A DNA stretch of 64,000 bases, taken from Paenibacillaceae bacterium (lineage in GTDB: Bacteria; Bacillota; Bacilli; Paenibacillales; CANHGK01). Under the pieces are notes generated by a model. It saw nothing but the letters and a program-made list of their open reading frames with translations, had not been told where the DNA came from and searched no databases. Location: positions 13,453-77,452 of the forward strand of contig CANHGK010000008.1 in NCBI GenBank assembly GCA_947460235.1, given 5' to 3'. Below are positions 3,278 to 38,705 of this stretch, in pieces. Within the stretch, counting starts at the first letter, position 1, and each line of letters opens with the position of its first letter. The translations under genes and the position numbers were made by a program.

Positions 3278-6200
3278 ATGGTGTGGAACGTGAAAAAGAC
3301 ATGGATTGCATATCGATACCTACTCATCTGCGCAATTGTTTGCATCCTGTGGCTTCCTGCGTACTTAACTGCCTTAGCGGGCCCTGTCGGCGAAAAGGCT
3401 AACGCAATCCGTATTGCGAATTGGCCTAATGGATTTCAAAAAGATTCGGATTCGTTTCATGGTGGTGCATTTGATGGTAAGAATGTTTGGATGGCACCAT
3501 ATGATGCTGACCGTATCGTTAAGATTAATGTTGCAGATGGTGAGATGGGCTCAATTCGTGCTTTTCCAGATGGATACACGTATACGTCCGGAGCATTTAG
3601 TGGAGCAGTCTATGATGGCACTTCGGTTTGGTTCATTCCATTCAATGCAGAGCGGTTGATTAAGATTGATCCGATCACTCTAAAAGTTTCATATGGCCCA
3701 CAGTGGCCAAGTGATTTTAAGAAGATGCAATCCGCATTTGATGGCGGTGTTGTTATCGGTGATTATTTGTGGTTAATTCCCCATGCATCTGATAAATTAT
3801 TGCGTTTAAATATTAAAAATTTCGCGTGGGACGCGTATTCGAAATGGCCCAATAATTTTTCGCATGGTAATGGTGCATTTTCTGGTGGAGTAGCTTCGTT
3901 GGATGGAGGCACGCTTTGGTTGGTTCCGTCCGATGCGAATATGATCGTAAAAGTTAATGCTTCGAACGGTGAAATGACGGGAAACAATGCGTGGCCAATT
4001 GGATTTTCAAAAACGAATGGAGCATTTTCTGGAGGCGCTACAGATGGTAATGGTCTGTGGTTAGCACCAAAAAAAGCAGATAAATTGGTGCGACTTGATT
4101 TGGTGAGTGGTGGAATGACTAGTTTTGCGAAGTGGCCTGCGGGAATGTCAATTGGAATCAATGCGTTTTCTGGAGCGATATATGACGGGCGGGATATTTG
4201 GTTGACTCCGTATGGAGCGGATCGAATTGTTCGTGTCAAAACGAACGGAGAAATGAGTGCACCGATTACATGGCCAAATGGCTTAAACCGAGGGATTCAG
4301 GCGTTTCAAGGTTCGGTATTTGATGGTTCGGATTTATGGCTCATACCATCTTCGGCGGATGCTGTCTTGGAATTGGTTGGGAATCGAACTCCGACTGCGA
4401 ATGGATCAAGCATTCAATTAACTGAAGATATTCCATATAGCGGTTTGTTGTCAGCATCAGACCTGGATGCAGATCCGTTAAAATTTACGGTTGTCAAAAC
4501 ACCTTCTAAAGGTGTATTAACGTGGATAAATGATTCAACGGGAAACTATAAATATACTCCAAATCTAAATGCGAATGGATCGGATACCTTTACCTATCGG
4601 GTAAGTGATGGAGTTACCTTTTCTAGCGAGGCAACCGTTTCGGTTTCGATTGCAAATGAGAATGATCCACCTGTTGTGAATGCACTTACCATACAAGCGC
4701 GTGAAGATGAATCCAAAACTGGAATTGGGATCGCTAATGATCCAGAGTTAGATGCATTAGAATATCAGATTGTTTCAAATGGTTCAAAAGGAACGTTTAC
4801 TTTTACGAACAATAAGACCGGTGAATTTTTATATGTGCCAACACCGGATCAGAACGGAAGTGACGAAGTTTCGGTACGCGTTAAAGACGGGAAATTGTTT
4901 TCGAATACCGTTAAATGGCAAGTGAATATTGTTCCTGTTAATGATATGCCGATTGCAAAGGACGTTACATTGCAAACGAATGAAGATCTTGCTGTTCAAT
5001 CGAATTTGAAGGCTTCGGATATTGATGGCGATGCACTTTCCTATGAATTCATTCAACAACCAACGCATGGGAATGTGATGATCTCAGATATTACAAAAGG
5101 AACTGTGATTTATAAACCAGATGAAAATTATTTCGGTTCTGATCAATTTGTTTATACGGTATCAGATGGCCTTTTAACATCGGCGCCTGCGAATGTTAAA
5201 ATTAATATTGCACCGATTGACGATGCACCTGAATTAAGTAGTGCAAATTTTACAGTAGTTCAAGGCGTTTCATTGCATGAACAATTAACTGCTAGTGATT
5301 TGGAGAATGATCCGTTAACATTTGAAATCGTCTCACCTCCTACGCACGGTAAATGGAGTTGGATTAATGCAGCAGATGGGAGATTTACGTACGAACCCGA
5401 GTTGAATTGGACTGGAATTGAAACGATTCAAGTTGATGTAACGGATAATGTATTGAAATCGGAAGTGAAATCGATTTCGATTGTTGTTTCGCCGACCGTA
5501 AAAAAACCAGTTGAAGTAAAGCAAGAGTTTCAGGTGACGAGTGGTGTTTATACCGTTAATCGATTAAATGTTCCGAATTCTGAGCAGAATGATTTGACGT
5601 TTGCACTCATGCTGAATCCTGGAAAAGGGAAGTTTGAATGGATCGACAATCAACACGGGTATTTTTACTATCAATCCAAAAGTGGTTTTATTGGTGATGA
5701 CGAATTTGAATATTTAGTTAAGGATTCTGGCATATATTCTGAAATGGGTAAAATCATTTTGCACGTGTTGGCTGCAACGAATGCTCCAATTAATACGGTG
5801 AGCCCGACTCCTTCGCCTACGTCAGTCCCAACAAATAAGCCAACAGTGTCAATCACGCCATCACCTACACCTTTAATTGTGAATAGTCAATCTCCAGCAG
5901 TTTTGCTGTCAAATACACCAGCACCTACAGTATTGGTTTCAGCATCACCGAATGCGACTTCGGTGAATCAACAGAGTCATACGCCGTCTCCAACATCTGT
6001 AATTAATGTTTTGACAAATAATCCTAATGCAACAAGTTCATCAACACCGATTGCACCTGTTGCAACGCCAGTCGTGATTCCGCAAATTGTATACATTCCT
6101 TACTATATTGAAGTGACGCCGATTCCTACGGCTACTTCGACGCCTGTGATGATACCGAATCCTACACCAACGTTGGAAATTAAAAAAATAAACGTTACAG

Positions 6201-7207
6201 TTACACCGGTTCCGTTGTCGAAAGTGGTGAATATGCCAGAATTACATTCGAATCATGGATTGGACTGGGTGGAAATAGATGATCAGACATTGAATCAAGA
6301 AATTTCCAAAACAATCCCTTTGAAAATAATTGGCCAGAAAAATAAAGAAATTCAGTTCGAAGAAGTTGTTAATGATGATCAAAAGGTGTTATCAATGATT
6401 ATGAATGATCAATTGGTACTACGTCCGAATGATTCGTTTTTCACAATTAATTTTTCGGGAAAGCGAGTAAGCAAACCGGTGTCGATTACGATTAGGGCAT
6501 CGGATCGAATGGGGAATTGGTCTGATCAAATTGTGCTTGTTGATGTTCGCGAAGTTCAGCGTGTGGAAATTTCTGCATTGAATGATGTAGTACTACCTTT
6601 GCCTGAAGAATGGAAAATGCAATTGAATGCTGGAGCGAATTCGAAAAAAGCTGCGTTTATGAAGGTTGTTAAAATTCCTGTGACAATCGAAGTTCAAAAT
6701 CGCGATGAAGAAATGATGGTAAGTGCTCAGACGGATAGTGCGTGTGGTTTGCAAGTGGATGGGTTTAACGGGAAGTCAATATTGTCTGAGGACGAGTCCA
6801 GCCGAACATATTACTTGAATGTCGTTGTTACCGACCGTTCGTCATTACGTCCATGTCATGTAGAAGTGACAGCAACCAGTGAAGGTCTTTTGCCTCGCTC
6901 ACAATCGTTTACGATTACTCCCGAAAATGTTCGTCCGAAACTAAACTTTATTAATCCATTAATGGTTATTAAATCAAACCAGCGCAGATTAATCACAATT
7001 AAGGCGACCGATCCGAATCAAGATCGCTTGACGTATTCTGTTAAAGGTGGAAATGATCAGACGGTGAAATTGACTCGTCAAGGTAATGTTTGGTTTTTAA
7101 AACCTGCGCCTTCTTATAAAACGACCACAGGTGTTAAGTTTTCTGTCAGGGTTGAGGATGGAAGGGGCGGGTTTGATTCCAAAACGTTCCGAGTAATTGT
7201 TAAATAA
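3278..7207 (+). CDS. large secreted repeat protein: signal peptide, 7 propeller-like ~47-aa repeats, 4 cadherin/BIg-like ~95-aa repeats, Pro/Thr/Ser-rich linker, C-terminal domain
   Basis: N-terminal hydrophobic signal. Seven copies of AFSGGxxDGxxLWLxPxxADxIV(K/R)(V/I)...WPxGF. Four repeats with DxDxDPLxF...Y(T/K)PxxNxxGSDxFTYxVSDG. Low-complexity PT(S) stretch at nt ~5770-6230. No LPXTG or SLH motif seen. Confidence 0.6.
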   Translation: MVWNVKKTWIAYRYLLICAIVCILWLPAYLTALAGPVGEKANAIRIANWPNGFQKDSDSFHGGAFDGKNVWMAPYDADRIVKINVADGEMGSIRAFPDGYTYTSGAFSGAVYDGTSVWFIPFNAERLIKIDPITLKVSYGPQWPSDFKKMQSAFDGGVVIGDYLWLIPHASDKLLRLNIKNFAWDAYSKWPNNFSHGNGAFSGGVASLDGGTLWLVPSDANMIVKVNASNGEMTGNNAWPIGFSKTNGAFSGGATDGNGLWLAPKKADKLVRLDLVSGGMTSFAKWPAGMSIGINAFSGAIYDGRDIWLTPYGADRIVRVKTNGEMSAPITWPNGLNRGIQAFQGSVFDGSDLWLIPSSADAVLELVGNRTPTANGSSIQLTEDIPYSGLLSASDLDADPLKFTVVKTPSKGVLTWINDSTGNYKYTPNLNANGSDTFTYRVSDGVTFSSEATVSVSIANENDPPVVNALTIQAREDESKTGIGIANDPELDALEYQIVSNGSKGTFTFTNNKTGEFLYVPTPDQNGSDEVSVRVKDGKLFSNTVKWQVNIVPVNDMPIAKDVTLQTNEDLAVQSNLKASDIDGDALSYEFIQQPTHGNVMISDITKGTVIYKPDENYFGSDQFVYTVSDGLLTSAPANVKINIAPIDDAPELSSANFTVVQGVSLHEQLTASDLENDPLTFEIVSPPTHGKWSWINAADGRFTYEPELNWTGIETIQVDVTDNVLKSEVKSISIVVSPTVKKPVEVKQEFQVTSGVYTVNRLNVPNSEQNDLTFALMLNPGKGKFEWIDNQHGYFYYQSKSGFIGDDEFEYLVKDSGIYSEMGKIILHVLAATNAPINTVSPTPSPTSVPTNKPTVSITPSPTPLIVNSQSPAVLLSNTPAPTVLVSASPNATSVNQQSHTPSPTSVINVLTNNPNATSSSTPIAPVATPVVIPQIVYIPYYIEVTPIPTATSTPVMIPNPTPTLEIKKINVTVTPVPLSKVVNMPELHSNHGLDWVEIDDQTLNQEISKTIPLKIIGQKNKEIQFEEVVNDDQKVLSMIMNDQLVLRPNDSFFTINFSGKRVSKPVSITIRASDRMGNWSDQIVLVDVREVQRVEISALNDVVLPLPEEWKMQLNAGANSKKAAFMKVVKIPVTIEVQNRDEEMMVSAQTDSACGLQVDGFNGKSILSEDESSRTYYLNVVVTDRSSLRPCHVEVTATSEGLLPRSQSFTITPENVRPKLNFINPLMVIKSNQRRLITIKATDPNQDRLTYSVKGGNDQTVKLTRQGNVWFLKPAPSYKTTTGVKFSVRVEDGRGGFDSKTFRVIVK

Positions 7208-7222
7208 ACTAACATTATAATT

Positions 7223-7258
7223 TGACTTTGTGTGTAATGTTCGTGTATTATCATTTCA
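7223..7258 (+). promoter_or_regulatory. putative sigma-A promoter for the riboswitch-operon transcript
   Basis: TTGACT (7223) then ~18 nt then TATTAT, about 10 nt upstream of the riboswitch 5' end. Confidence 0.3.
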
Positions 7259-7274
7259 AGAAGATGAAAACACG

Positions 7275-7406
7275 ATATATCGACCTAGGGTTCCGTAGTT
7301 GTTGTTAATTTATATGACACACTAGCTGGTCCGAGAGGTAAAGAGTTCTGATGTTGATCTGTTTCAACCGATGAACTTACACACGGAGGGATAAAAGCCC
7401 GGGAGG
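7275..7406 (+). promoter_or_regulatory. guanidine-I riboswitch aptamer (ykkC/yxkD leader class)
   Basis: Conserved blocks CUAGGGUUCCG (7285-7295), GGUCCGAGAG (7328-7337) and ACACGGAGGGAUAAAAGCCCGGGAGG (7381-7406). Downstream gene context (TauA/NMT1-type ABC transporter plus ureohydrolase) is the classical guanidine-I context. Confidence 0.75.
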
Positions 7407-7431
7407 TTATGCATACTCCGCGGGCTTTTTG
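7396..7431 (+). terminator. riboswitch expression-platform terminator
   Basis: AGCCCGGGAG ... CUCCGCGGGCU stem with one bulge, followed by U5. The 5' arm is the 3' end of the aptamer, so the two structures are mutually exclusive. Confidence 0.6.
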
Positions 7432-7457
7432 TGTTCAAAAAAAGAGGAGGAATTGAG

Positions 7458-8501
7458 ATGAGCATGCCAGTAGCAATGAAATGGAGAAAGATGTTTGTGA
7501 TTTTTGCGGTAATCGTTGTATGCGTGTCAATGATGTTGTCAGGATGTGCAACGACGAATACTACGCAGAGTGAAACAGAGGGATCTTCAGATCAACCGAT
7601 TCAAATTGCACTGAGTCCTTGGCCGGGTTGGTACATCTGGTATTTGGCCGAGGAAAAAGGATTTTTCAAAAAACGTGGTGTGAATGTGGAACTGAAGTGG
7701 TTCCCTGTGTATAGCGATTCCTTGCAAGCATTATCTACGGGCCAAGTCGATGCAAATAGCCAGACATTGAGCGATACATTGGCGCCTCTTTCGAAGTCGA
7801 TTCCCTTAAAAGTGGTGTTGGTTAATGATAACTCGAATGGCGGCGATGCGATCGTAAGTAAGCCGGGCATCAACTCGATCGCTGACTTGAAAGGCAAAAC
7901 CGTTGCAACGGAACTTGGTACGGTCGACCATCTATTGCTGCTGACTGCTCTTGCGAATGCTGGAATGAAAGAAACAGACATCAATTATGTGAATATGACC
8001 GTCAATGATGCTGGACCTGCTTTTATTAATGGGAAAGTGGATGCGGCTGTGTTATGGGAGCCGTTCCAAACGAAAGCAGTTAAAGATGGCGGCGGAAAAG
8101 TATTATTCTCATCGAAAGAAACGCCTGGATTGATTCCTGATTTACTCGTGTTCAAAGCAGAAACAGTAGAGAAACGCGGCGATGATATTCAAAAAGTCGT
8201 CAACGCGTGGTTTGATGCATTAGCTGAATTGAAAGCTCATCCGGACGAGTCCATTGCCATTTTGGCGAAAAAAGCTGAGCAGACCCCAGCGGAGTTCAAA
8301 GAAGGATTGGATACGATCAAAGTGTTTACGAAAGCAGATAATATTAAAGCGTTTGATGCATTGGATGGATATGAGTCACTCTCCTTTACAGGCGGGAAAA
8401 CAGCGGAATTCTTACAAGGGTTGGAGATGGTTAGTTCCATTCCAGACGTAAAGGCAGCGCTTGAACCGAAGTTTGTGAAAGCTGCAGAAGCGGCGGAATA
8501 A
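7458..8501 (+). CDS. ABC transporter substrate-binding lipoprotein, NMT1/THI5 (SsuA/TauA-like) family
   Basis: Lipobox LSGC after signal peptide; NMT1-like periplasmic binding fold. ATG 7458 with a GGAGG RBS; the GTG at 7431 lies inside the terminator. Confidence 0.8.
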   Translation: MSMPVAMKWRKMFVIFAVIVVCVSMMLSGCATTNTTQSETEGSSDQPIQIALSPWPGWYIWYLAEEKGFFKKRGVNVELKWFPVYSDSLQALSTGQVDANSQTLSDTLAPLSKSIPLKVVLVNDNSNGGDAIVSKPGINSIADLKGKTVATELGTVDHLLLLTALANAGMKETDINYVNMTVNDAGPAFINGKVDAAVLWEPFQTKAVKDGGGKVLFSSKETPGLIPDLLVFKAETVEKRGDDIQKVVNAWFDALAELKAHPDESIAILAKKAEQTPAEFKEGLDTIKVFTKADNIKAFDALDGYESLSFTGGKTAEFLQGLEMVSSIPDVKAALEPKFVKAAEAAE

Positions 8502-8540
8502 TGGTTGGATGAATGGGATGGTTGGAGGAGGGCGAATCAA

Positions 8541-9299
8541 TTGAAGCAAAAAAAATATCTCGGATACTGGGCAATTAGTTCGTTTCTTCTCCTGTTTGGT
8601 GGATGGTTAGCGCTCAGTGAAAGCGGAGTGATGAATCCGACATTTTTGCCATCGCCTTTCGTGGTGTTCAAAACGATGGTGAAATTGCTCGGAACAGAGC
8701 AATATTGGACGCATATTGGCATGAGTTGTTTTCGAGTGGTAGCCGGTTTCTTGTTAGCGGTTGTAATTGGTGTACCACTTGGATTATTGGCAGGATATTC
8801 GAGGCGCGGAGCTGCATTTATTGAACCTCCGATGGAATTTATTCGTTATATGCCAGCAGTTGCGTTTATTCCGCTCGTGATGATATGGGCGGGGATCGGC
8901 GAATGGGCAAAAGTGATTATTATTTTTATCGGATGTTTTTTTCAGTTGGTGCTGATGGTAGCGGACATTACGAGGCGAGTAAATAAAGACTGGATCGATG
9001 CTGCGAGGACGATGGGTGCGACGCGCTGGGGTGTACTAGAGACGATCATTATTCCTGCGATCCGCCCAGAGTTGATGAATGGACTTCGATTATTGCTTGG
9101 ATGGGCTTGGACCTATTTGGTTGTTGCTGAGCTCGTCGCAGTAAATAGTGGTCTTGGATACGCAATTATGAAGGCGCAGCGGTTTTTGAATACAGATCAA
9201 ATTTTTGTTGGGATGATTGTGATCGGAGCACTAGGATTGATTAGTGATCGCGTATTCGCCTATTGTAACAAACGATTTTTCCCGTGGGCGCAATCCTAA
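8541..9299 (+). CDS. ABC transporter permease (binding-protein-dependent inner-membrane component)
   Basis: 6 TM with an EAA-like loop (AARTMGATRWGVLETIIIPAIRP). A TTG at 8541 follows GGAGGAGGG at the right spacing; an alternative ATG at 8505 has no RBS. Confidence 0.7.
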   Translation: MKQKKYLGYWAISSFLLLFGGWLALSESGVMNPTFLPSPFVVFKTMVKLLGTEQYWTHIGMSCFRVVAGFLLAVVIGVPLGLLAGYSRRGAAFIEPPMEFIRYMPAVAFIPLVMIWAGIGEWAKVIIIFIGCFFQLVLMVADITRRVNKDWIDAARTMGATRWGVLETIIIPAIRPELMNGLRLLLGWAWTYLVVAELVAVNSGLGYAIMKAQRFLNTDQIFVGMIVIGALGLISDRVFAYCNKRFFPWAQS

Positions 9300-9336
9300 G
9301 TGATGAGTGGGTTTGATAGATAGGGAGTGAATGTAG

Positions 9337-10092
9337 ATGTCAGCAGCTATAGAATTACAAAAACTCGGTAAAACGTTCGAGAGTAACCAAGGCATCGTCC
9401 ATGCACTTGAAGAAATCGAACTCTCCGTTCAAGCGGGAGAATTCGTGAGCGTACTTGGACCGAGTGGATGCGGCAAATCAACGATGCTTCGAATTTTGGC
9501 GGGACTAGAACCATATACGAGTGGACAAATCATTTGTGATGATCGCGTAATTACTGGTCCTGGTGCGGACCGTGGCATGGTTTTTCAGGCGTATACGCTT
9601 TTCCCGTGGTTAACCGTACGTGAAAATATCGAATATGGCCTCAAATTAGCAGGTAAACATATTTTTGAGCGTCGTCGTATTTCGGGGGCATGGCTCGATC
9701 GGATTGGATTATCGAGCTTTGCGAAGCACTATCCGAATCAATTGTCTGGTGGGATGAAACAGCGCGTGGCAATCGCACGTGCGTTAGCGAATAAACCGAA
9801 AGTTCTGCTCATGGACGAACCCTTTGGAGCGCTCGATGCACATACGAAATTAATGATGCAGCGGTTGTTGCAAGCATTGTGGGTGGATGAACGGCCGACG
9901 GTTGTGTTTATTACGCATGATGTTGATGAGGCGATTTATTTGGGGCAACGGGTCGTGGTGATGGGTGCAAGACCAGGGCGGATTGTAAAAGAATATCAGG
10001 TACACTTGCCAGAAAAACGCACCGAAGAAGTTCGAGGAAATGCACATTTTATTGAATTGCGAAAAATGTTATTACAAGATCTGGAACATTAA
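9337..10092 (+). CDS. ABC transporter ATP-binding protein
   Basis: Walker A GPSGCGKST, signature LSGGMKQR, Walker B LLMDEPFGALD. Confidence 0.85.
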   Translation: MSAAIELQKLGKTFESNQGIVHALEEIELSVQAGEFVSVLGPSGCGKSTMLRILAGLEPYTSGQIICDDRVITGPGADRGMVFQAYTLFPWLTVRENIEYGLKLAGKHIFERRRISGAWLDRIGLSSFAKHYPNQLSGGMKQRVAIARALANKPKVLLMDEPFGALDAHTKLMMQRLLQALWVDERPTVVFITHDVDEAIYLGQRVVVMGARPGRIVKEYQVHLPEKRTEEVRGNAHFIELRKMLLQDLEH

Positions 10093-10115: not shown

Positions 10116-11273
10116 GTGACGGATATGGCATTTTGGGATCAGCACGGATTAAACGCGCGGCGATTACAAAATAATGTGGAAGAATCAAAGGGAGATTTGC
10201 ATGGCATTCAGGCAGCGCATGCCGAGGCATTATTGCCAAGTACACGTGCAGACGCAGAAATTAAACGGGGTTTAGAGCTAGGACTTGAAGGTGCGGCAAG
10301 CATTGGTGATCGGACGATTTCTTGTTTTTCACGGGGCGAGTTGCCGCATTATGCGGGGATTAACACATTTTTGAAAATGCCGTATTTGGAAGATGTGCGA
10401 AGAGTCGGCGAGTATGATGCAGCAATTCTCGGTGTACCATTTGATATTGGTACGACCTATCGCTCAGGAACGCGTTTTGGTCCGCAGGCAATTCGCCGAA
10501 TTTCCGCTTTGTATCAAACGTACAATTATGAACTCGGTGTGGACTTGCGCGAGCAATTGAAACTATGCGATCTTGGAGATGTATTCACGATAGCGAATAT
10601 CGAGAAAAGTTTTGATCAAATTACAAAAGCCGTATCTCATGTAATGAGTCAAGGCACGATGCCGATTATTCTCGGTGGTGATCATTCAATCGGATATCCT
10701 TGTGTGCGCGGGGTCGCAGAAAACATTGACGGCGACATCGGAATTATTCATTTGGATCGTCATATCGACATTCAGGAAAAAGACATGGATGAGCGCATGC
10801 ATACGACGCCTTGGTTTCATGCAACCAATATCAAAAACGCAAAGCCGAAAAATCTCGTACAAATCGGGATCGGCGGCTGGCAAGTGCCGCGTGCCGGAGT
10901 TCAGGTAGGTCGTGAGCGCGGTACGACGATCATGACGATTAATGATGTCGAGACGCTTGGGATTGATAAAGTTGCTGAGATGGCGCTTGAAGTGGCGTGG
11001 AAAGGCTGTAAAGCGGTTTACTTGAGCTTTGATATTGATTCAATTGATTGCGGATTTGTGCCAGGGACGGGATGGCCTGAACCGGGAGGCTTTTTACCGC
11101 GCGAAGCACTTAAGTTAATGCAATTGGTGGCAAAAGAAGGACTGGCAGCGATGGAAGTTGTTGAAGTTGCGCCGGCCTATGATATTAGTGATACGACGGC
11201 GTTGCTCGCGGCACGTGCGGTACTTGATGTACTGGCAACGATGACGGCGCACGGAAAAATTGGAGGAAAGTAA
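10116..11273 (+). CDS. arginase/agmatinase-family ureohydrolase (candidate guanidine hydrolase)
   Basis: Ureohydrolase metal-site motifs GGDHSIGYP, HLDRHIDI and SFDIDSIDCGFVPGTG. The start is uncertain (GTG 10116 or ATG 10125). The stop overlaps the cbiM start. Confidence 0.7.
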   Translation: MTDMAFWDQHGLNARRLQNNVEESKGDLHGIQAAHAEALLPSTRADAEIKRGLELGLEGAASIGDRTISCFSRGELPHYAGINTFLKMPYLEDVRRVGEYDAAILGVPFDIGTTYRSGTRFGPQAIRRISALYQTYNYELGVDLREQLKLCDLGDVFTIANIEKSFDQITKAVSHVMSQGTMPIILGGDHSIGYPCVRGVAENIDGDIGIIHLDRHIDIQEKDMDERMHTTPWFHATNIKNAKPKNLVQIGIGGWQVPRAGVQVGRERGTTIMTINDVETLGIDKVAEMALEVAWKGCKAVYLSFDIDSIDCGFVPGTGWPEPGGFLPREALKLMQLVAKEGLAAMEVVEVAPAYDISDTTALLAARAVLDVLATMTAHGKIGGK

Positions 11274-11933
11274 ATGCACATCCCTGACGGATTTTTGGAT
11301 GCCAAAACATGGATCAGTACAACGCTACTTGGCGGGGCGGTGGTTATGTTGGCTTCGCGTAATGCCCAAGTAGGTTTGAAACGTGAACAAGTTCCCAAAA
11401 TGGGTCTGTTAGGGGCATTTATTTTTGCGACGCAAATGGTTAATTTTCCGATTGCTGGAGCAACTTCAGGACATTTTCTCGGCGGTGCAATGGCGGCAAT
11501 TTTGTTTGGACCTTGGGTCAGTGTGTTGTTGATGAGTGCAGTGCTGATTATTCAAGCGTTTATTTTTCAAGATGGTGGTGTAACCGTGCTGGGAGCAAAC
11601 ATCTTGTGTACAGGAGTTCTCGGTAGTTTTGCAGGGTATGGGATGTATCGTTTCCTTGGAGTACGGGGGTTTCAATGGCTTAGTGAATCAGTCAAAATTT
11701 TCACGGCTGCGTGGTGTTCAATTGTAGCTGCGGCGAGTGGTGTTTCGTTGTTACTTGCTTTATCAGGTACAATGCCACTTGCCATAGGATTACCGGCCAT
11801 GACAGGTTGGCATAGTTTGATTGGGATTGGTGAAGGCTTGATTAGTGTTTGGGTAATCGCTTATTGGCGCAAGGCGCAGGCCGTCGCTTCACCGATATTG
11901 GTTGATACGAATCAAAGCGGTGAACACCGATGA
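11274..11933 (+). CDS. cbiM: CbiM/NikM substrate-specific component of Ni/Co transporter
   Basis: Begins MHIPDGFLD, the processed N-terminus typical of CbiM/NikM. About 6 TM. The ATG directly abuts the upstream stop. Confidence 0.8.
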   Translation: MHIPDGFLDAKTWISTTLLGGAVVMLASRNAQVGLKREQVPKMGLLGAFIFATQMVNFPIAGATSGHFLGGAMAAILFGPWVSVLLMSAVLIIQAFIFQDGGVTVLGANILCTGVLGSFAGYGMYRFLGVRGFQWLSESVKIFTAAWCSIVAAASGVSLLLALSGTMPLAIGLPAMTGWHSLIGIGEGLISVWVIAYWRKAQAVASPILVDTNQSGEHR

Positions 11934-12199
11934 AGTTGCCGAATATGAAGTTATGGATCGGTGTTGTCGTAGTAATGGTTGTTTGTGGTGTCTTATCGTA
12001 TTTTTCTTCAACATCACCGGATGGACTCGAGCGCGTGGCAGTTGACCTAGGATTTTCTAATCAAGAGAAAACGTATTGGTCGAATGCGCCAGTAGCGAAT
12101 GGTCAATATGGAATCATGGGATGGATAGGCGTCGCACTCGTATTCGGACTCGTCTGGTTATGGGGACGCATCGTTACGAAAGGCAAAGATCGGGGATAG
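11930..12199 (+). CDS. PDGLE-domain small membrane protein (CbiN-like partner of CbiM)
   Basis: 89 aa with 2 TM and an SPDGLERVA motif. ATGA start/stop overlap with cbiM. Confidence 0.55.
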   Translation: MKLPNMKLWIGVVVVMVVCGVLSYFSSTSPDGLERVAVDLGFSNQEKTYWSNAPVANGQYGIMGWIGVALVFGLVWLWGRIVTKGKDRG

Positions 12200-12203
12200 T
12201 TAC

Positions 12204-13757
12204 ATGAAAAAAAGTGCACAATCGATTAAATATCGTACAGCGGGATTGCTCGTTGTACTCATGAGCATGGTGCTATGGTCGGACGAGCGTGTGTTAATTG
12301 GATATAGTGTAGTTCTTTGTTTATTCATGTGGTGGAGCGGGTTATCGCTTCGAGAGGCGGGGCAACGATTGTTGTTACTCATTCCTTTCGGTGCGGGAAC
12401 ACTCGCTTTTTTGCCGTTCCATGGACATGAGGTTGTGGTCGGTGATGTGATGGGGTGGCACGTATATGAAGATGGACTCACGAAGGCGATTGGTTTGCTA
12501 TTAAAAATGGTCAATGCGAGTTTGATCCTTAGTATGATGTTGCATAAGATTGATTCGGGGCAATTTTTTCATAGTTTGCGTGCGCTCGGATTGCCGAAAT
12601 TATTGACTGAGCTGTTGCAACTGATGATGCGCTATGTTCATGTGCTAGGGGAAGAAGCTCGGTCCATGGTACTTGCTCAAAAGGCGCGAGGATTTCGGGC
12701 ACAAGGTTGGTGGTGGTCGATCAACAATTATCGACGTTTTGGGCAGTTGATGGGTGTTTTATTTGTGCGAAGTTTACGGCGCAGTGAGCGAGTTGATTTG
12801 GCGATGCGTTCACGCGGGGAACGTGAATGGTTTGGGGGTACTGACATGGAAACGTCTATGGAAAAATCGTTAAGTGGTCGCTCGGAATGGGCCGTAGAAA
12901 TGAAGGGTGTCGGTTACTCCTATGCAGGAAGTAACTCACTAGCACTGCGCGGAATCGATTTGTCGATTCGAAGTGGGAGTAAAACGGTATTGATGGGGAT
13001 GAATGGTGCGGGGAAATCGACGCTCATTTCGTTATTGAACGGACTGGCGCAGGTCTCAAAGGGAATGTATCGTTTGTTCGGACAAGAAATTACGGAGAAA
13101 AATGCGATGCATGCGAGGCGTGGTGTCGGTGTCGTTTATCAGGACCCTGATGATCAATTGTTTTCGCCAACGGTCTCAGAAGACATCGCATATGGTCCAT
13201 CGAATATGGGCCTATCGGAATCGGAAATTGAAGATCGTGTTACATATGCGATTGGTGCAGTTGGGTTGAGCGCTTTGGCAGATAAGTCTCCGTTTGAACT
13301 TAGTTACGGACAGAAGCGGCGAGTTGCAATTGCCGGTGTGATGGCGATGCGACCACCAATGATGGTGCTCGATGAACCAATGGCCTATCTTGATCCGCGT
13401 GGTCGGGATGAATTGCAGGCATTGCTTGAACAGTTGCATTTGATGGGAACAACCCTCATCGTAGCGACGCACGATGTTGATTTTGCTGCAGAATGGGCAG
13501 ATCATGTGATCATTTTGCGCGACGGGAAAGTACTTGCTGAAGGGGATGTTTCGCTTTTATTCGATGAAAAAATTGTGTATGAAGCAGGGCTGCATTTGCC
13601 GAGGTTGGTCAGACCATTTCGATTGTTGCAAGGCGCAGGCGATGTGAAACCGCGCACGGTTCGACAAGCGGCGCAAGAAATGTGGCGTTTGATTTTGAAA
13701 GGGACGAATGCAGAAACGAAGCATGACGAGCAAAATCAACTCAAATCTTTTCGTTGA
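12204..13757 (+). CDS. fused CbiQ (T component) - CbiO (ABC ATPase) of Ni/Co transporter
   Basis: N-terminal ~220-aa polytopic membrane domain. C-terminal ABC domain with Walker A GMNGAGKST, signature LSYGQKRR and Walker B MVLDEPMAYLD. Confidence 0.75.
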   Translation: MKKSAQSIKYRTAGLLVVLMSMVLWSDERVLIGYSVVLCLFMWWSGLSLREAGQRLLLLIPFGAGTLAFLPFHGHEVVVGDVMGWHVYEDGLTKAIGLLLKMVNASLILSMMLHKIDSGQFFHSLRALGLPKLLTELLQLMMRYVHVLGEEARSMVLAQKARGFRAQGWWWSINNYRRFGQLMGVLFVRSLRRSERVDLAMRSRGEREWFGGTDMETSMEKSLSGRSEWAVEMKGVGYSYAGSNSLALRGIDLSIRSGSKTVLMGMNGAGKSTLISLLNGLAQVSKGMYRLFGQEITEKNAMHARRGVGVVYQDPDDQLFSPTVSEDIAYGPSNMGLSESEIEDRVTYAIGAVGLSALADKSPFELSYGQKRRVAIAGVMAMRPPMMVLDEPMAYLDPRGRDELQALLEQLHLMGTTLIVATHDVDFAAEWADHVIILRDGKVLAEGDVSLLFDEKIVYEAGLHLPRLVRPFRLLQGAGDVKPRTVRQAAQEMWRLILKGTNAETKHDEQNQLKSFR

Positions 13758-13783
13758 GTGAATAGATAATCGAGCGTATAATT
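13752..13783 (+). promoter_or_regulatory. putative sigma-A promoter for PilZ gene
   Basis: TTGAGT, 17-nt spacer, TATAAT. Confidence 0.35.
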
Positions 13784-13819
13784 TGATTATCTAATTTCGC
13801 GACAAATGAGGTGTTTAGC

Positions 13820-14233
13820 TTGGACGCAGTTTCAAATCAACGAGTGCATCCGCGGATCTCGATTAGTGGAAAGATCAAATTTTCGTTTATTGCATTTAAA
13901 ATTGGTGAAAACGGCAAATATGAAGAAGATATTTCAATTATTGAAACACAAATTCGCGATATTTCCCTTGGCGGCATCAGCTTTGAAGATGTGCGAAGTT
14001 ATGAGCCTGGCATGAAAGGGTATATTTTTATTGTAATCGGACGCAGAAGATATGCACTCGTTGGTGAAGTTGTACGGTGTATTTCAGGCCAAAATGCGTA
14101 TCAAGTCGGAATCGCATTAGATAAAAATTTGAATGATGATGGAATGTTTGAACCGAGTGAAGAAATTGTGGAATTAATTCAGCGCTTAGAAGTATTACTT
14201 GAACATGATCCGAATTATACGAACATCACGTAA
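13820..14233 (+). CDS. PilZ-domain protein (c-di-GMP receptor family), paralog A
   Basis: RxxxR motif (QRVHPR) and DxSxGG motif (RDISLGG). TTG 13820 follows a GAGGTG RBS. Confidence 0.65.
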   Translation: MDAVSNQRVHPRISISGKIKFSFIAFKIGENGKYEEDISIIETQIRDISLGGISFEDVRSYEPGMKGYIFIVIGRRRYALVGEVVRCISGQNAYQVGIALDKNLNDDGMFEPSEEIVELIQRLEVLLEHDPNYTNIT

Positions 14234-37264: not shown

Positions 37265-38527
37265 TTATACGGATGCTTCTGCAGTCGTACGACTTTCTAA
37301 ATAAGCAGTTAATTTTTGACGAACATGAATCGCAGCCCCGGACAGTAAGCAACCATATTTATAACCGGCTTCGTCGTTTTCGACGCGGATAATCCGACCG
37401 ATCAATGGTGGCAATTCTGCTTCGTAAGGGAAGTGCAATACGATAAACATATCTTGTGCAAGTGGTGTTGCTGATGTAATCATCATCCCACCAGCCGAGA
37501 GATCAAAGAATTTACCTTCAACAGTTTGACCAACGAATGCGCCTTCTGCTGTATACTGATGAATCGAAATTTGAACGTCGATGCCCATGCGAATACGCGG
37601 TGCACGGCGACGATTCGTTTCTGGTTGTTCAGGATCGAATCGTTTCGTAATTTTGGCATTCATCAAGTCTTCGTATGTCATCACAACAGAGGATAAATCC
37701 ATTGCGCCAACTTCTTTTAGCATTGCCGTTTGATAAACATTTTTGCCGTTTTGGAGTATTGGTAGTGGCAATTGATATTCATCTGCAAGTTTGGAGGCAA
37801 TCTGTAAATCTTTATACATTAATTGAAGTGAGAATTGATTAGAAAAGTCGCGGGAAAGGATTTTCTCGCCTTTCATTTCAGCCATACGGCTGCTAGCACC
37901 GCCAGCAAGGACGACTTTCATAAATGCTTCTGGATCAATCCCTGATTTACTTGCAATGGCTAAGCCTTCGCAAAGGCCTAATACGTTGATTCCAACAATT
38001 GTATTTGCTGCAATTTTAGTATATCCACCTGAACCAGGGCCCCCCATATATATTGCATCTTTTCCCATTGCCAGGAAAAGATCGCGATGATCATCTAAAA
38101 TGGTTTGTTCGCCGCCAATCATGAACACCAAGCTACCGTCGATTGCCGCGGGTTTACTACCGGATACTGGCGCATCAAGAAAATCGATGCCATGTGATGC
38201 CAGTTCGATATGTAGTCGGATACTTAAGCCAGGTGAAATTGTGGAACAGTCGATAACCGTTACTGCGGGATGTAATCCATCCATGATGCCATTAGCACCA
38301 AAGTAAACATTCTCAATGGAGCTGTCATCACTCAACATGGTAATAACCACTTCAGACGATTTGACAACTTCTGCTGCACTTGCATGTGCAATTGCACCAA
38401 GTTCAATAAGCTCGTTCACACGTGAGTTCGTTCGGTTATATACGTTTAATGTGTAACCTTTCTTGATCAAGTTTGCTGCCATCGGTTGTCCCATAGTTCC
38501 GAGTCCAATAAAGCCTATTTTTTTCAT
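37265..38527 (-). CDS. NAD-binding beta-hydroxyacid (3-hydroxyisobutyrate-type) dehydrogenase fused to C-terminal PilZ domain
   Basis: N-terminal GFIGLGTMG Rossmann motif and HIBADH-like core. C-terminal ~110 aa carry RxxxR (NRRRAPRIR) and DxSxGG (FDLSAGG). GAGGTGA RBS before ATG 38527. Confidence 0.7.
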   Translation of the reverse strand: MKKIGFIGLGTMGQPMAANLIKKGYTLNVYNRTNSRVNELIELGAIAHASAAEVVKSSEVVITMLSDDSSIENVYFGANGIMDGLHPAVTVIDCSTISPGLSIRLHIELASHGIDFLDAPVSGSKPAAIDGSLVFMIGGEQTILDDHRDLFLAMGKDAIYMGGPGSGGYTKIAANTIVGINVLGLCEGLAIASKSGIDPEAFMKVVLAGGASSRMAEMKGEKILSRDFSNQFSLQLMYKDLQIASKLADEYQLPLPILQNGKNVYQTAMLKEVGAMDLSSVVMTYEDLMNAKITKRFDPEQPETNRRRAPRIRMGIDVQISIHQYTAEGAFVGQTVEGKFFDLSAGGMMITSATPLAQDMFIVLHFPYEAELPPLIGRIIRVENDEAGYKYGCLLSGAAIHVRQKLTAYLESRTTAEASV

Positions 38528-38705
38528 CCAATGATCACCTCGCGTACATTGTAACACGACATTTCATCGCTGTGAATGCTTTTACTTGCTTTTTTCCGTT
38601 GTTTTCAAGTATGCTATGTGATAAATATAATAGAACATCAAGGAAAAGACAGCCTAACAATGTTCGTGAAATGTGCAGGCCTTGTCTTATTAGGAGGATA
38701 CTTCA

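Follow-up and report, generated by a model that had tools for sequence, protein, structure and literature searches.

Positions 7458-10092 of the window, by which we mean the whole 64-kb stretch of DNA that was analysed, are filled by three co-oriented genes encoding a binding protein, a permease and an ATPase. A promoter-like sequence, a riboswitch aptamer and an intrinsic terminator lie ahead of them. The three genes open a seven-gene unit that reaches past 10092, to 13757, and comprises gimABC-type genes, gdmH and the genes of an ECF transporter. The leader elements and all seven genes are on the + strand. 3' of the operon, a promoter-like site (13754-13782) is followed by an unrelated PilZ gene. 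An NMT1/TauA-family ABC importer at 7458-10092 had been proposed in the original prediction and is confirmed by matches to Pfam NMT1, BPD_transp_1 and ABC_tran. That prediction was made without the published GimABC system (2025) and without the extension of the unit to 13757, with gdmH and a Ni/Co ECF transporter.

The first gene (7458-8501) encodes a predicted GimA-like guanidine-binding lipoprotein of 347 aa (Pfam NMT1, 3.5e-28; NMT1_2, 2.1e-16). Read from ATG 7458, which has the ribosome binding site GAGGAGG at 7444-7450, the protein carries the lipobox LSGC with Cys30. The cysteine had previously been numbered Cys39, a count that applies only from GTG 7431, which is situated inside the terminator U-tract. 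The second gene (8505-9299) encodes a GimB-like ABC permease (BPD_transp_1, 9.2e-28); translation more likely begins at TTG 8541, 8 nt past GGAGGAGGG, than at 8505. The third (9337-10092) encodes a GimC-like ABC ATPase (ABC_tran, 1.9e-34).

Guanidine-I riboswitch in the leader

A covariance-model match to RF00442, the Guanidine-I (ykkC subtype 1) riboswitch aptamer, was found at 7274-7407. In a local scan the match scored 58.9 bits (E 9e-10) and covered model positions 1-107 of 107. This is about 4 bits under the Rfam gathering score of 63 bits, which is a curated threshold and not a structural feature. The whole-window Rfam scan at gathering score returned zero matches, the aptamer being seen only in the local scan by E-value, where Guanidine-I was the sole credible match and no other riboswitch family matched around the aptamer. 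A TPP riboswitch was considered and rejected: with an E-value limit of 10, none matched in 6900-7800, and none matched window-wide at gathering score.

The invariant blocks of the aptamer, CUAGGGUUCCG, CUGGUCCGAGAG (7326-7337) and ACACGGAGGGAUAAAAGCCCGGGAG (7381-7405), are every one intact. They hold the CCGAGAG bulge (7331-7337), CACGG (7382-7386) and GGGAG (7401-7405), described as the guanidinium-contacting positions (PMC5340920). The pocket is that of subtype 1. The GA bulge of GGUCCGAGAG carries an adenosine rather than a pyrimidine, CACGG forms the floor, and GGGAG forms the wall together with the A-rich loop; the bulge adenosine sets guanidine aptamers apart from those for ppGpp and PRPP (PMC6031431, PMC5340920). 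Across 16 aligned loci, covariation was seen at 16/25 aptamer pairs. The Guanidine-I aptamer is genuine, though marginal by Rfam's standard, and the leader RNA is predicted to bind guanidinium.

An intrinsic terminator followed by a U-run occupies 7393-7430 (fold -22.4 kcal/mol, z = -3.75). Its 5' arm, AAAAGCCCGGGAG, is at the same time the 3' strand of aptamer helix P3, and because this strand serves both structures the element is read as an ON switch. The P3/terminator overlap is present in 8/8 orthologous loci. Likewise, a Guanidine-I riboswitch stands ahead of the binding-protein orthologue in all eight Paenibacillaceae loci sampled, so that the control by a riboswitch originally proposed for the importer is upheld by the aptamer as well as by its conserved linkage. 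A putative sigma-70-like promoter (TTGACT, 18-nt spacer, TATTAT; 7222-7251), with 10/12 matches in a consensus scan, ends about 22 nt 5' of the aptamer. Its placement is tentative: it was identified by pattern alone, and shuffled sequence yielded at least as many sites in the scan.

We regard it as very unlikely that the aptamer is a decaying relic and that control of the operon rests with the promoter only or with nitrogen regulation. Decay would fit a score below 63 bits that a standard scan leaves unreported, as well as the two non-pairs at the base of P1, and nitrogen regulation has a parallel in Synechocystis, where gimABC has its own NtcA-dependent promoter. However, the score shortfall is explained by those two mismatches at the base of a short P1 and by insertions of 21 and 24 nt in the loops of P1b and P2, all invariant nucleotides are kept, and the terminator, which cannot coexist with the aptamer fold, is strong and suitably positioned. 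Moreover, the orthologous leaders, alike in terminator design, score 61.9-93.6 bits against RF00442.

The importer and its predicted ligand

Guanidine import by transporters of this kind is already known. From 2021-2024 at the latest, such transporters in guanidine-I operons were interpreted as importing guanidine (PMC12186494, PMC11410670), and in 2025 the activity was shown experimentally for GimABC in cyanobacteria. GimABC of Synechocystis sp. PCC 6803 (Sll1080-Sll1082; PMC12704784, bioRxiv 10.1101/2025.03.14.643060) is likewise a three-component NitT/TauT-type importer, and all three of its subunits are homologous to the window proteins over the full length. As reference for the binding protein we used the GimA orthologue of Synechocystis salina, the locus of which encodes a GdmH with 99% identity to Sll1077; 128/331 residues are identical (39%, E 8e-75). 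The permease and the ATPase share 39% (E 9e-50) and 50% (E 9e-87) identity with the GimB and GimC orthologues of locus L001. Synechocystis GimA has a KD of 97 nM for guanidine, and gimA and gimB mutants do not grow at 0.1 mM guanidine (PMC12704784).

The residues W59, W62, D135, F205 and D233 (Sll1080 numbering) have been proposed to form a guanidinium cage in GimA (PMC12704784). Their equivalents in the window protein are W55, W58, D130, W200 and D228, that is, the same succession of W, W, D, aromatic and D; four of the five are identical, and the fifth is a conservative change from Phe to Trp. Trp in place of Phe is also found in the products of 10 cyanobacterial gimA genes adjoining gdmH, and the five positions are invariant among 120 homologues. 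We infer from these residues that guanidine is the ligand of the lipoprotein, captured in an aromatic and acidic cage. The GimA cage itself was derived by docking into a predicted model, and this, together with an identity to GimA of only 39%, counts against the explanation of the locus as a guanidine operon.

A paralogous NMT1-type binding protein, sought as an internal control, was not found in the window, and E. coli SsuA and TauA were therefore taken as controls. SsuABC and TauABC share the NMT1/SsuA fold and the ABC family with the window importer, at about 23-26% identity and with different regulation. The counterparts of W55 and W58 are Q and S in SsuA and Q and A in TauA, and D130 is replaced by Glu in both. 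W200 is common to SsuA and TauA and D228 is common to TauA, so that only W55, W58 and D130 discriminate. A W-x-x-W pair together with Asp130 serves as a simple signature telling GimA-type binders from SsuA/TauA; Asp228, although a conserved residue of the family, is found in TauA too.

The replacement of these three residues bears on whether the importer might carry aliphatic sulfonates, taurine, nitrate or an HMP/thiamine precursor and merely happen to lie 3' of the RNA element. The original prediction had warned that the fold is easily mis-annotated as a sulfonate transporter. Indeed, the binding protein passes the NCBIfam subfamily model TIGR01728 SsuA_fam (211.7 bits, cut-off 163.5), E. 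coli SsuA is the closest of its solved homologues (E 3.7e-20), and several orthologues carry the database name 'aliphatic sulfonate ABC transporter substrate-binding protein'. The equivalog models, in contrast, are failed by a wide margin, both for SsuA (NF008588, 88.7 vs 299) and for TauA (TIGR01729, 73.8 vs 304), and NF008553 is not passed either (54.1 against 490). The window holds neither the desulfonation genes ssuD, ssuE and tauD nor a TPP riboswitch, and the riboswitch linkage in 8/8 loci goes with a guanidine-catabolic cargo. A sulfonate, taurine, nitrate or HMP importer is hence extremely unlikely.

Predicted guanidine hydrolase and nickel/cobalt transporter

The fourth gene (10116-11273), which starts 23 nt 3' of the ATPase stop codon, matches solved guanidinases of the arginase family (PDB 9fek, E 3.7e-157; 7esr/7oi1, Sll1077, E 4.5e-150), at 61% and 64% identity; the next family follows at 2.7e-48. 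The guanidinase-diagnostic residues are kept as T114, H229, W320 and E350, corresponding to T105, H222, W313 and E344 of the Nitrospira inopinata enzyme (PMC11410670), and the sequence contains the binuclear metal motifs GGDHS, DRHID and SFDIDSID. Judged by these matches, the gene is an orthologue of GdmH guanidine hydrolase. In its diagnostic residues and metal ligands the enzyme thus agrees with GdmH of the GhaA/GhaB system (Sll1077-1079) and with the N. inopinata guanidinase (7OI1/7ESR, 9FEK). The enzyme is probably translated from ATG 10125; the product read from the GTG start is absent from the protein collection, which points to a different start codon.

The orthologue next to the importer adds to the GimA homology and the kept cage residues in supporting the guanidine originally named as substrate. 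A small guanidino compound had been allowed for as well, and substituted or larger compounds (methylguanidine, aminoguanidine, hydroxyguanidine or agmatine-like) could be imported with free guanidine acting only as the signal. Five residues do not settle the specificity of a binding protein, and methylguanidine-processing operons under riboswitch control exist (PMC12508155). Nevertheless, the cage agrees with the one proposed in GimA for free guanidinium, there is little space in the aptamer pocket for anything larger (PMC5340920), and genes for a dioxygenase, a lyase or demethylation are absent from the operon. The co-transcribed enzyme, with its four diagnostic residues, is orthologous to a GdmH reported to be highly specific for free guanidine (PMC12186494). 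We consider a larger guanidino substrate unlikely and favor free guanidine.

The remaining three genes encode a Ni/Co ECF transporter. The CbiM/NikM-type S component (11274-11933; CbiM, 4.8e-54) has its start codon directly after the gdmH stop codon; its closest solved chain is 4m58 (E 2e-23), and M1-H2 and the aligned H67 are conserved. Overlapping it by 4 nt is a gene for a small PDGLE-domain membrane protein, a CbiN/NikN-like accessory component (11930-12199; PDGLE, 6.6e-10), which is fused to CbiM in L082. The final gene of the operon (12204-13757) encodes a fusion of CbiQ, the T component, and CbiO, the ATPase (CbiQ, 1.4e-27; ABC_tran, 9.1e-29). A NikMNQO-like ECF transporter probably supplies the Ni2+ needed by GdmH, with the reservation that sequence does not tell Ni from Co.

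Cyanobacterial-type gdmH loci are arranged differently. Among 80 such loci a hypA-like gene was found at 76 and a hypB-like gene at 70, and an ECF transporter at none. By comparison, the window and three other Paenibacillaceae gdmH loci have the ECF transporter in every case and hypA/B in none; neither hypA nor hypB was found anywhere in the 64-kb window. Where Sll1077-1079 has HypA/HypB-like maturases, the window instead has the Ni/Co ECF transporter, and this importer in the operon slot of the HypA/HypB-type maturases (GhaAB) beside cyanobacterial gdmH is a modestly new feature. In the literature searched, no relevant account was found of a nickel or cobalt transporter tied to guanidine riboswitches. 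Neighboring Ni chaperones are missing in Nitrospira inopinata too, which uses an APC permease (PMC11410670). We lean slightly towards the view that uptake of the metal cofactor, too, is under guanidine-riboswitch control in Paenibacillaceae, through the NikMNQO-like importer co-transcribed with gdmH. Because of this co-transcription, the nickel supply of GdmH would be turned on by the substrate itself. An ECF transporter is also part of the L086 operon, which is without gdmH.

Proposed function and relation to known systems

From gene content, leader and conserved residues, the locus is very probably a guanidine-inducible assimilation operon of this Paenibacillaceae bacterium, combining a riboswitch, a GimABC-type importer, GdmH and an ECF transporter. 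Transcription would start near 7258 and, without guanidine, end at the terminator. Intracellular guanidinium bound to the aptamer would stabilize helix P3, which would then sequester the 5' arm of the terminator; the terminator could not form, RNA polymerase would read through, and the seven genes would be expressed. The lipoprotein of the GimABC-type importer would capture guanidinium in its cage of W55, W58, W200, D130 and D228. GdmH would convert guanidine to urea and ammonium, while the ECF transporter would bring in Ni2+ for the enzyme. Guanidine uptake would reinforce induction, and hydrolysis would remove the inducer. The physiological role of the operon may be the supply of a nitrogen source; a urease or urea carboxylase that would complete the pathway was not found within the 64-kb window.

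In Synechocystis as in the window, gimABC is clustered with gdmH and a Guanidine-I riboswitch. The order differs, since here the riboswitch directly precedes the binding-protein gene and gimABC is followed by gdmH, whereas in Synechocystis the riboswitch precedes gdmH and an NtcA-dependent promoter of its own drives gimABC. A further difference is the Gram-positive lipoprotein anchor of the window binding protein, unlike Synechocystis GimA. In enterobacteria and Pseudomonas, a Guanidine-I-controlled ABC transporter, with a binding protein of NCBIfam TIGR03427, is encoded in an operon with guanidine carboxylase. Its fold and riboswitch class are those of the window, and it is inferred to import guanidine ahead of catabolism, as proposed here (PMC12186494, PMC5340920). 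The catabolic route is carboxylation in that operon and hydrolytic, by GdmH, in the window. In addition, the window binding protein scores 133.9 bits against TIGR03427 ABC_peri_uca, under the cut-off of 333.9, and hence belongs to another subfamily.

The locus does not overturn current understanding. Guanidine assimilation has until now been studied in cyanobacteria, comammox Nitrospira and proteobacteria; the locus would add soil Firmicutes to these groups, and the co-regulated Ni/Co ECF transporter would be a small addition to the metal supply of Ni-dependent guanidinases. For annotation, many Paenibacillus and Cohnella binding proteins now labeled 'aliphatic sulfonate' or generic NitT/TauT most likely belong to a guanidine importer, and the neighboring 'agmatinase' is most likely a guanidine hydrolase. 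The binding-protein orthogroup is linked to gdmH in L082, L083 and L087. In Cohnella algarum (L089), a binding protein of the window type is paired instead with the guanidine carboxylase pathway.

Organization of the operon and its guanidine-I leader

Domain matches delineate seven genes on the forward strand, encoding an NMT1-family binding protein (7458-8501), a BPD_transp_1 permease (8505-9299), an ABC ATPase (9337-10092), an arginase-family enzyme (10116-11273), CbiM (11274-11933), a small PDGLE-domain protein (11930-12199) and a CbiQ-CbiO fusion (12204-13757). Since the intergenic gaps measure only -4 to 37 nt, the genes constitute one transcription unit. The region 7458-10092, originally assigned to an importer, comprises exactly the three importer genes. 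The operon is preceded by the gene of a large cadherin-like surface protein (3278-7207), a secreted protein of 1309 aa that combines repeats in its N-terminal region with five Big_9/cadherin-like domains and a linker rich in Pro, Thr and Ser. It is followed by one of two PilZ-domain genes in the window, encoding a stand-alone protein of 140 aa (13811-14233) with its own promoter-like site (13754-13782). The other PilZ protein (37265-38557, reverse strand) is a fusion in which a 6-phosphogluconate/3-hydroxyisobutyrate dehydrogenase-like enzyme carries the PilZ domain at its C-terminus.

The mechanical ORF starts at 7431, 8505 and 10116 are probably too far upstream. GGAGG-type ribosome-binding sites are found at proper spacing before ATG 7458, TTG 8541 and ATG 10125, and a product starting at GTG 10116 was absent from the protein collection searched. 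In the binding protein, a lipoprotein signal of the Gram-positive type includes the lipobox LSGC. Its lipidated cysteine is residue 30 when numbered from ATG 7458, a start codon with the ribosome-binding site GAGGAGG 7 nt before it; the original numbering, Cys39, holds only from GTG 7431, a codon within the terminator U-tract.

Scanning the whole 64-kb window with Rfam at gathering score gave no matches. A local scan placed a full-model match to Guanidine-I (RF00442) at 7274-7407 (58.9 bits, E 9e-10; gathering score 63). The shortfall stems from two non-pairs at the P1 base and from enlarged P1b and P2 loops, whose insertions of 21 and 24 nt each fold as an extended hairpin. All invariant aptamer blocks are kept, namely CUAGGGUUCCG (7285-7295), CUGGUCCGAGAG (7326-7337) and ACACGGAGGGAUAAAAGCCCGGGAG (7381-7405). 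In crystal structures, the adenosine of the GA bulge sets guanidine aptamers apart from the variants for ppGpp and PRPP (PMC6031431), and the pocket has a guanine floor and a GGGAG wall (PMC5340920). Following these papers, bulge, floor and wall all lie within the invariant blocks of the window. The 3' strand of P3, AAAAGCCCGGGAG (7393-7405), also serves a terminator hairpin as its 5' arm; this hairpin (7393-7430) folds at -22.4 kcal/mol (z = -3.75) and is followed by a U-run. Such an overlap is the classical ON-switch design. Just upstream of the aptamer lies a promoter-like site (TTGACT, 18 nt, TATTAT; 7222-7251), a pattern match only.

Homologues of the binding protein number in the thousands; the 120 best share 60-75% identity with it and belong almost without exception to Paenibacillus, Cohnella and their relatives. 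Eight loci were fetched from such homologues (L082-L089). In each of the eight, the binding-protein gene is immediately preceded by a Guanidine-I match (61.9-93.6 bits), and a terminator uses the conserved AAAAGCCYGGGAG as its 5' arm. An alignment of 16 leaders, both window-type and cyanobacterial, contained compensatory changes in 16 of 25 predicted pairs. Because linkage and terminator are conserved and the pairs covary, we regard the window element as a true Guanidine-I member despite its sub-threshold score.

The importer and its predicted substrate

GimABC (Sll1080-1082) of Synechocystis imports guanidine with high affinity: ITC gave a KD of 97 nM for guanidine binding by GimA, W59, W62, F205, D135 and D233 form the proposed cage, and gimA and gimB mutants do not grow at 0.1 mM guanidine (PMC12704784). 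As GimA reference we used a Synechocystis salina locus, found via the Sll1077 sequence taken from a PDB alignment, which contains a Guanidine-I riboswitch (88.4 bits), gdmH, hypA-like and hypB-like genes, gimA, gimB and gimC. The window binding protein is 39% identical to this GimA over 331 residues (E 8e-75), the permease 39% to GimB and the ATPase 50% to GimC. Aligned to GimA, the cage residues correspond to W55, W58, D130, W200 and D228, which are invariant across all of the best 120 homologues; Trp in place of Phe at position 200 is likewise encoded by 10 cyanobacterial gimA genes adjoining gdmH. Escherichia coli SsuA and TauA served as negative controls. In place of the Trp pair SsuA has Q/S and TauA Q/A, and both have Glu at position 130. 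Since W200 is shared by both controls and D228 by TauA, the signature that discriminates the window protein from them at the residue level is W55, W58 and D130. In agreement with the cage residues, only the broad SsuA_fam subfamily model scored above cut-off, and the equivalog-level models for SsuA, TauA and TIGR03427 failed by wide margins.

In the window and the eight related loci, the same binding-protein orthogroup always lies behind a Guanidine-I riboswitch, with varying cargo. It is accompanied by gdmH and an ECF transporter in the window, Ferviditalea candida (L082), P. swuensis (L083) and P. alkalitolerans (L087), by an ECF transporter without gdmH in P. gansuensis (L086), and by a guanidine carboxylase pathway behind a second Guanidine-I in Cohnella algarum (L089); in L084, L085 and L088 the importer stands alone, in two cases adjoining a urea-type ABC transporter. 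The ties of one orthogroup to both known routes of guanidine degradation independently and strongly support guanidine as the substrate. Conserved linkage, GimABC homology, the retained cage and guanidine-degrading neighbours thus uphold the original prediction, and we consider it very likely that a working Guanidine-I ON switch here controls an importer of guanidine. Residual doubts concern mainly the sub-threshold aptamer, the derivation of the support from the sequence of this orthologue, and the lack of any urea-degrading enzyme within the 64-kb window.

An association between ABC transporters of this fold and ykkC/guanidine-I operons has been recognized since the riboswitch was characterized (PMC5340920); reviews describe the transporters as guanidine importers (PMC12186494), and in 2025 experiments confirmed this for one of them (PMC12704784). 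The window importer is therefore a Gram-positive addition to an already known system. Its differences from known GimABC systems are modest: the riboswitch directly precedes gimA, gimABC is followed by gdmH, Trp replaces F205 of Synechocystis GimA, and an ECF metal importer stands in place of the nickel maturases of cyanobacterial gdmH loci. For the last alone, no description was found in the literature searched.

A probable guanidine hydrolase and a co-transcribed metal transporter

The arginase-family protein (10116-11273) is 64% identical to the Nitrospira inopinata guanidinase (9fek, E 3.7e-157) and 61% to Sll1077 (7esr/7oi1, E 4.5e-150); the next family, guanidinobutyrase, follows at E 2.7e-48. 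This GdmH orthologue keeps the metal-ligand motifs and T114, H229, W320 and E350, four residues diagnostic of guanidinases (PMC11410670). It barely passes the NCBIfam agmatinase equivalog model (175.0 bits, cut-off 174.3), so automatic annotation would name it agmatinase, as first happened to Sll1077 (PMC12186494).

The last three genes (11274-13757) encode a CbiM/NikM-type ECF transporter. Its S component keeps M1-H2 and an aligned H67, and is nearer to the solved chain 4m58 (E 2e-23), which we take to be the nickel-specific NikM2, than to CbiM 5x3x (E 7e-13). Because GdmH is Ni2+-dependent (PMC12186494, PMC11410670), nickel supply is the natural inference for the ECF module, cobalt being also compatible with the sequence. 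Among 80 cyanobacterial-type gdmH loci, 76 have a hypA-like and 70 a hypB-like gene, and none has an ECF transporter; all four Paenibacillaceae gdmH loci (the window and three others) have the ECF transporter, and hypA/B are absent from all four. Here, an ECF transporter is co-transcribed with gdmH under a guanidine riboswitch, and the nickel maturases are replaced by a metal importer.

Alongside the observed sequence features, homologies, residue conservation, conserved linkage and terminator design, we propose a mechanism in which guanidinium binding to the aptamer would prevent termination, the importer would scavenge guanidine, GdmH would convert it to urea and ammonium, and the ECF module would supply Ni2+. 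Uptake would then act as positive and hydrolysis as negative feedback.

Neighbourhoods of related loci

In Paenibacillus gansuensis (L086, 7776-13310), riboswitch, gimABC and CbiM-PDGLE-CbiQO follow one another with no gdmH between, so that guanidine controls the Ni/Co transporter in an operon that lacks the hydrolase gene. Upstream of this operon are urease genes together with a urea-type ABC transporter. The Cohnella algarum locus (L089, 7822-17032) encodes a binding protein 71% identical to that of the window, followed by the second Guanidine-I (10711-10844). Behind it lie two DUF1989 genes and genes for a biotin carboxylase of 1292 aa and for an amidase, a set that we assign to the guanidine carboxylase pathway and that stands where other loci have gdmH.

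Several relatives carry urease and/or a five-gene Peripla_BP_6-type (UrtABCDE-like) ABC transporter immediately upstream of the guanidine operon (L082, 390-5161; L083, 1-4519; L084, 2828-7694; L086, 1-5950; L088, 2769-7619). These neighbours fit urea as the GdmH product; neither was found in the window. In Ferviditalea candida (L082), an Rfam match to 5_ureB_sRNA (4017-4323, forward strand; 118 bits, E 1.7e-30) lies antisense to the urease alpha-subunit gene; here the model has probably picked up conserved urease coding sequence and not a genuine sRNA. A MAG contig binned as 'Sphingobacterium thalpophilum' (L040) carries gimA and a gdmH whose product shares 91% identity with the cyanobacterial enzyme, and may be a mis-binned cyanobacterial contig.
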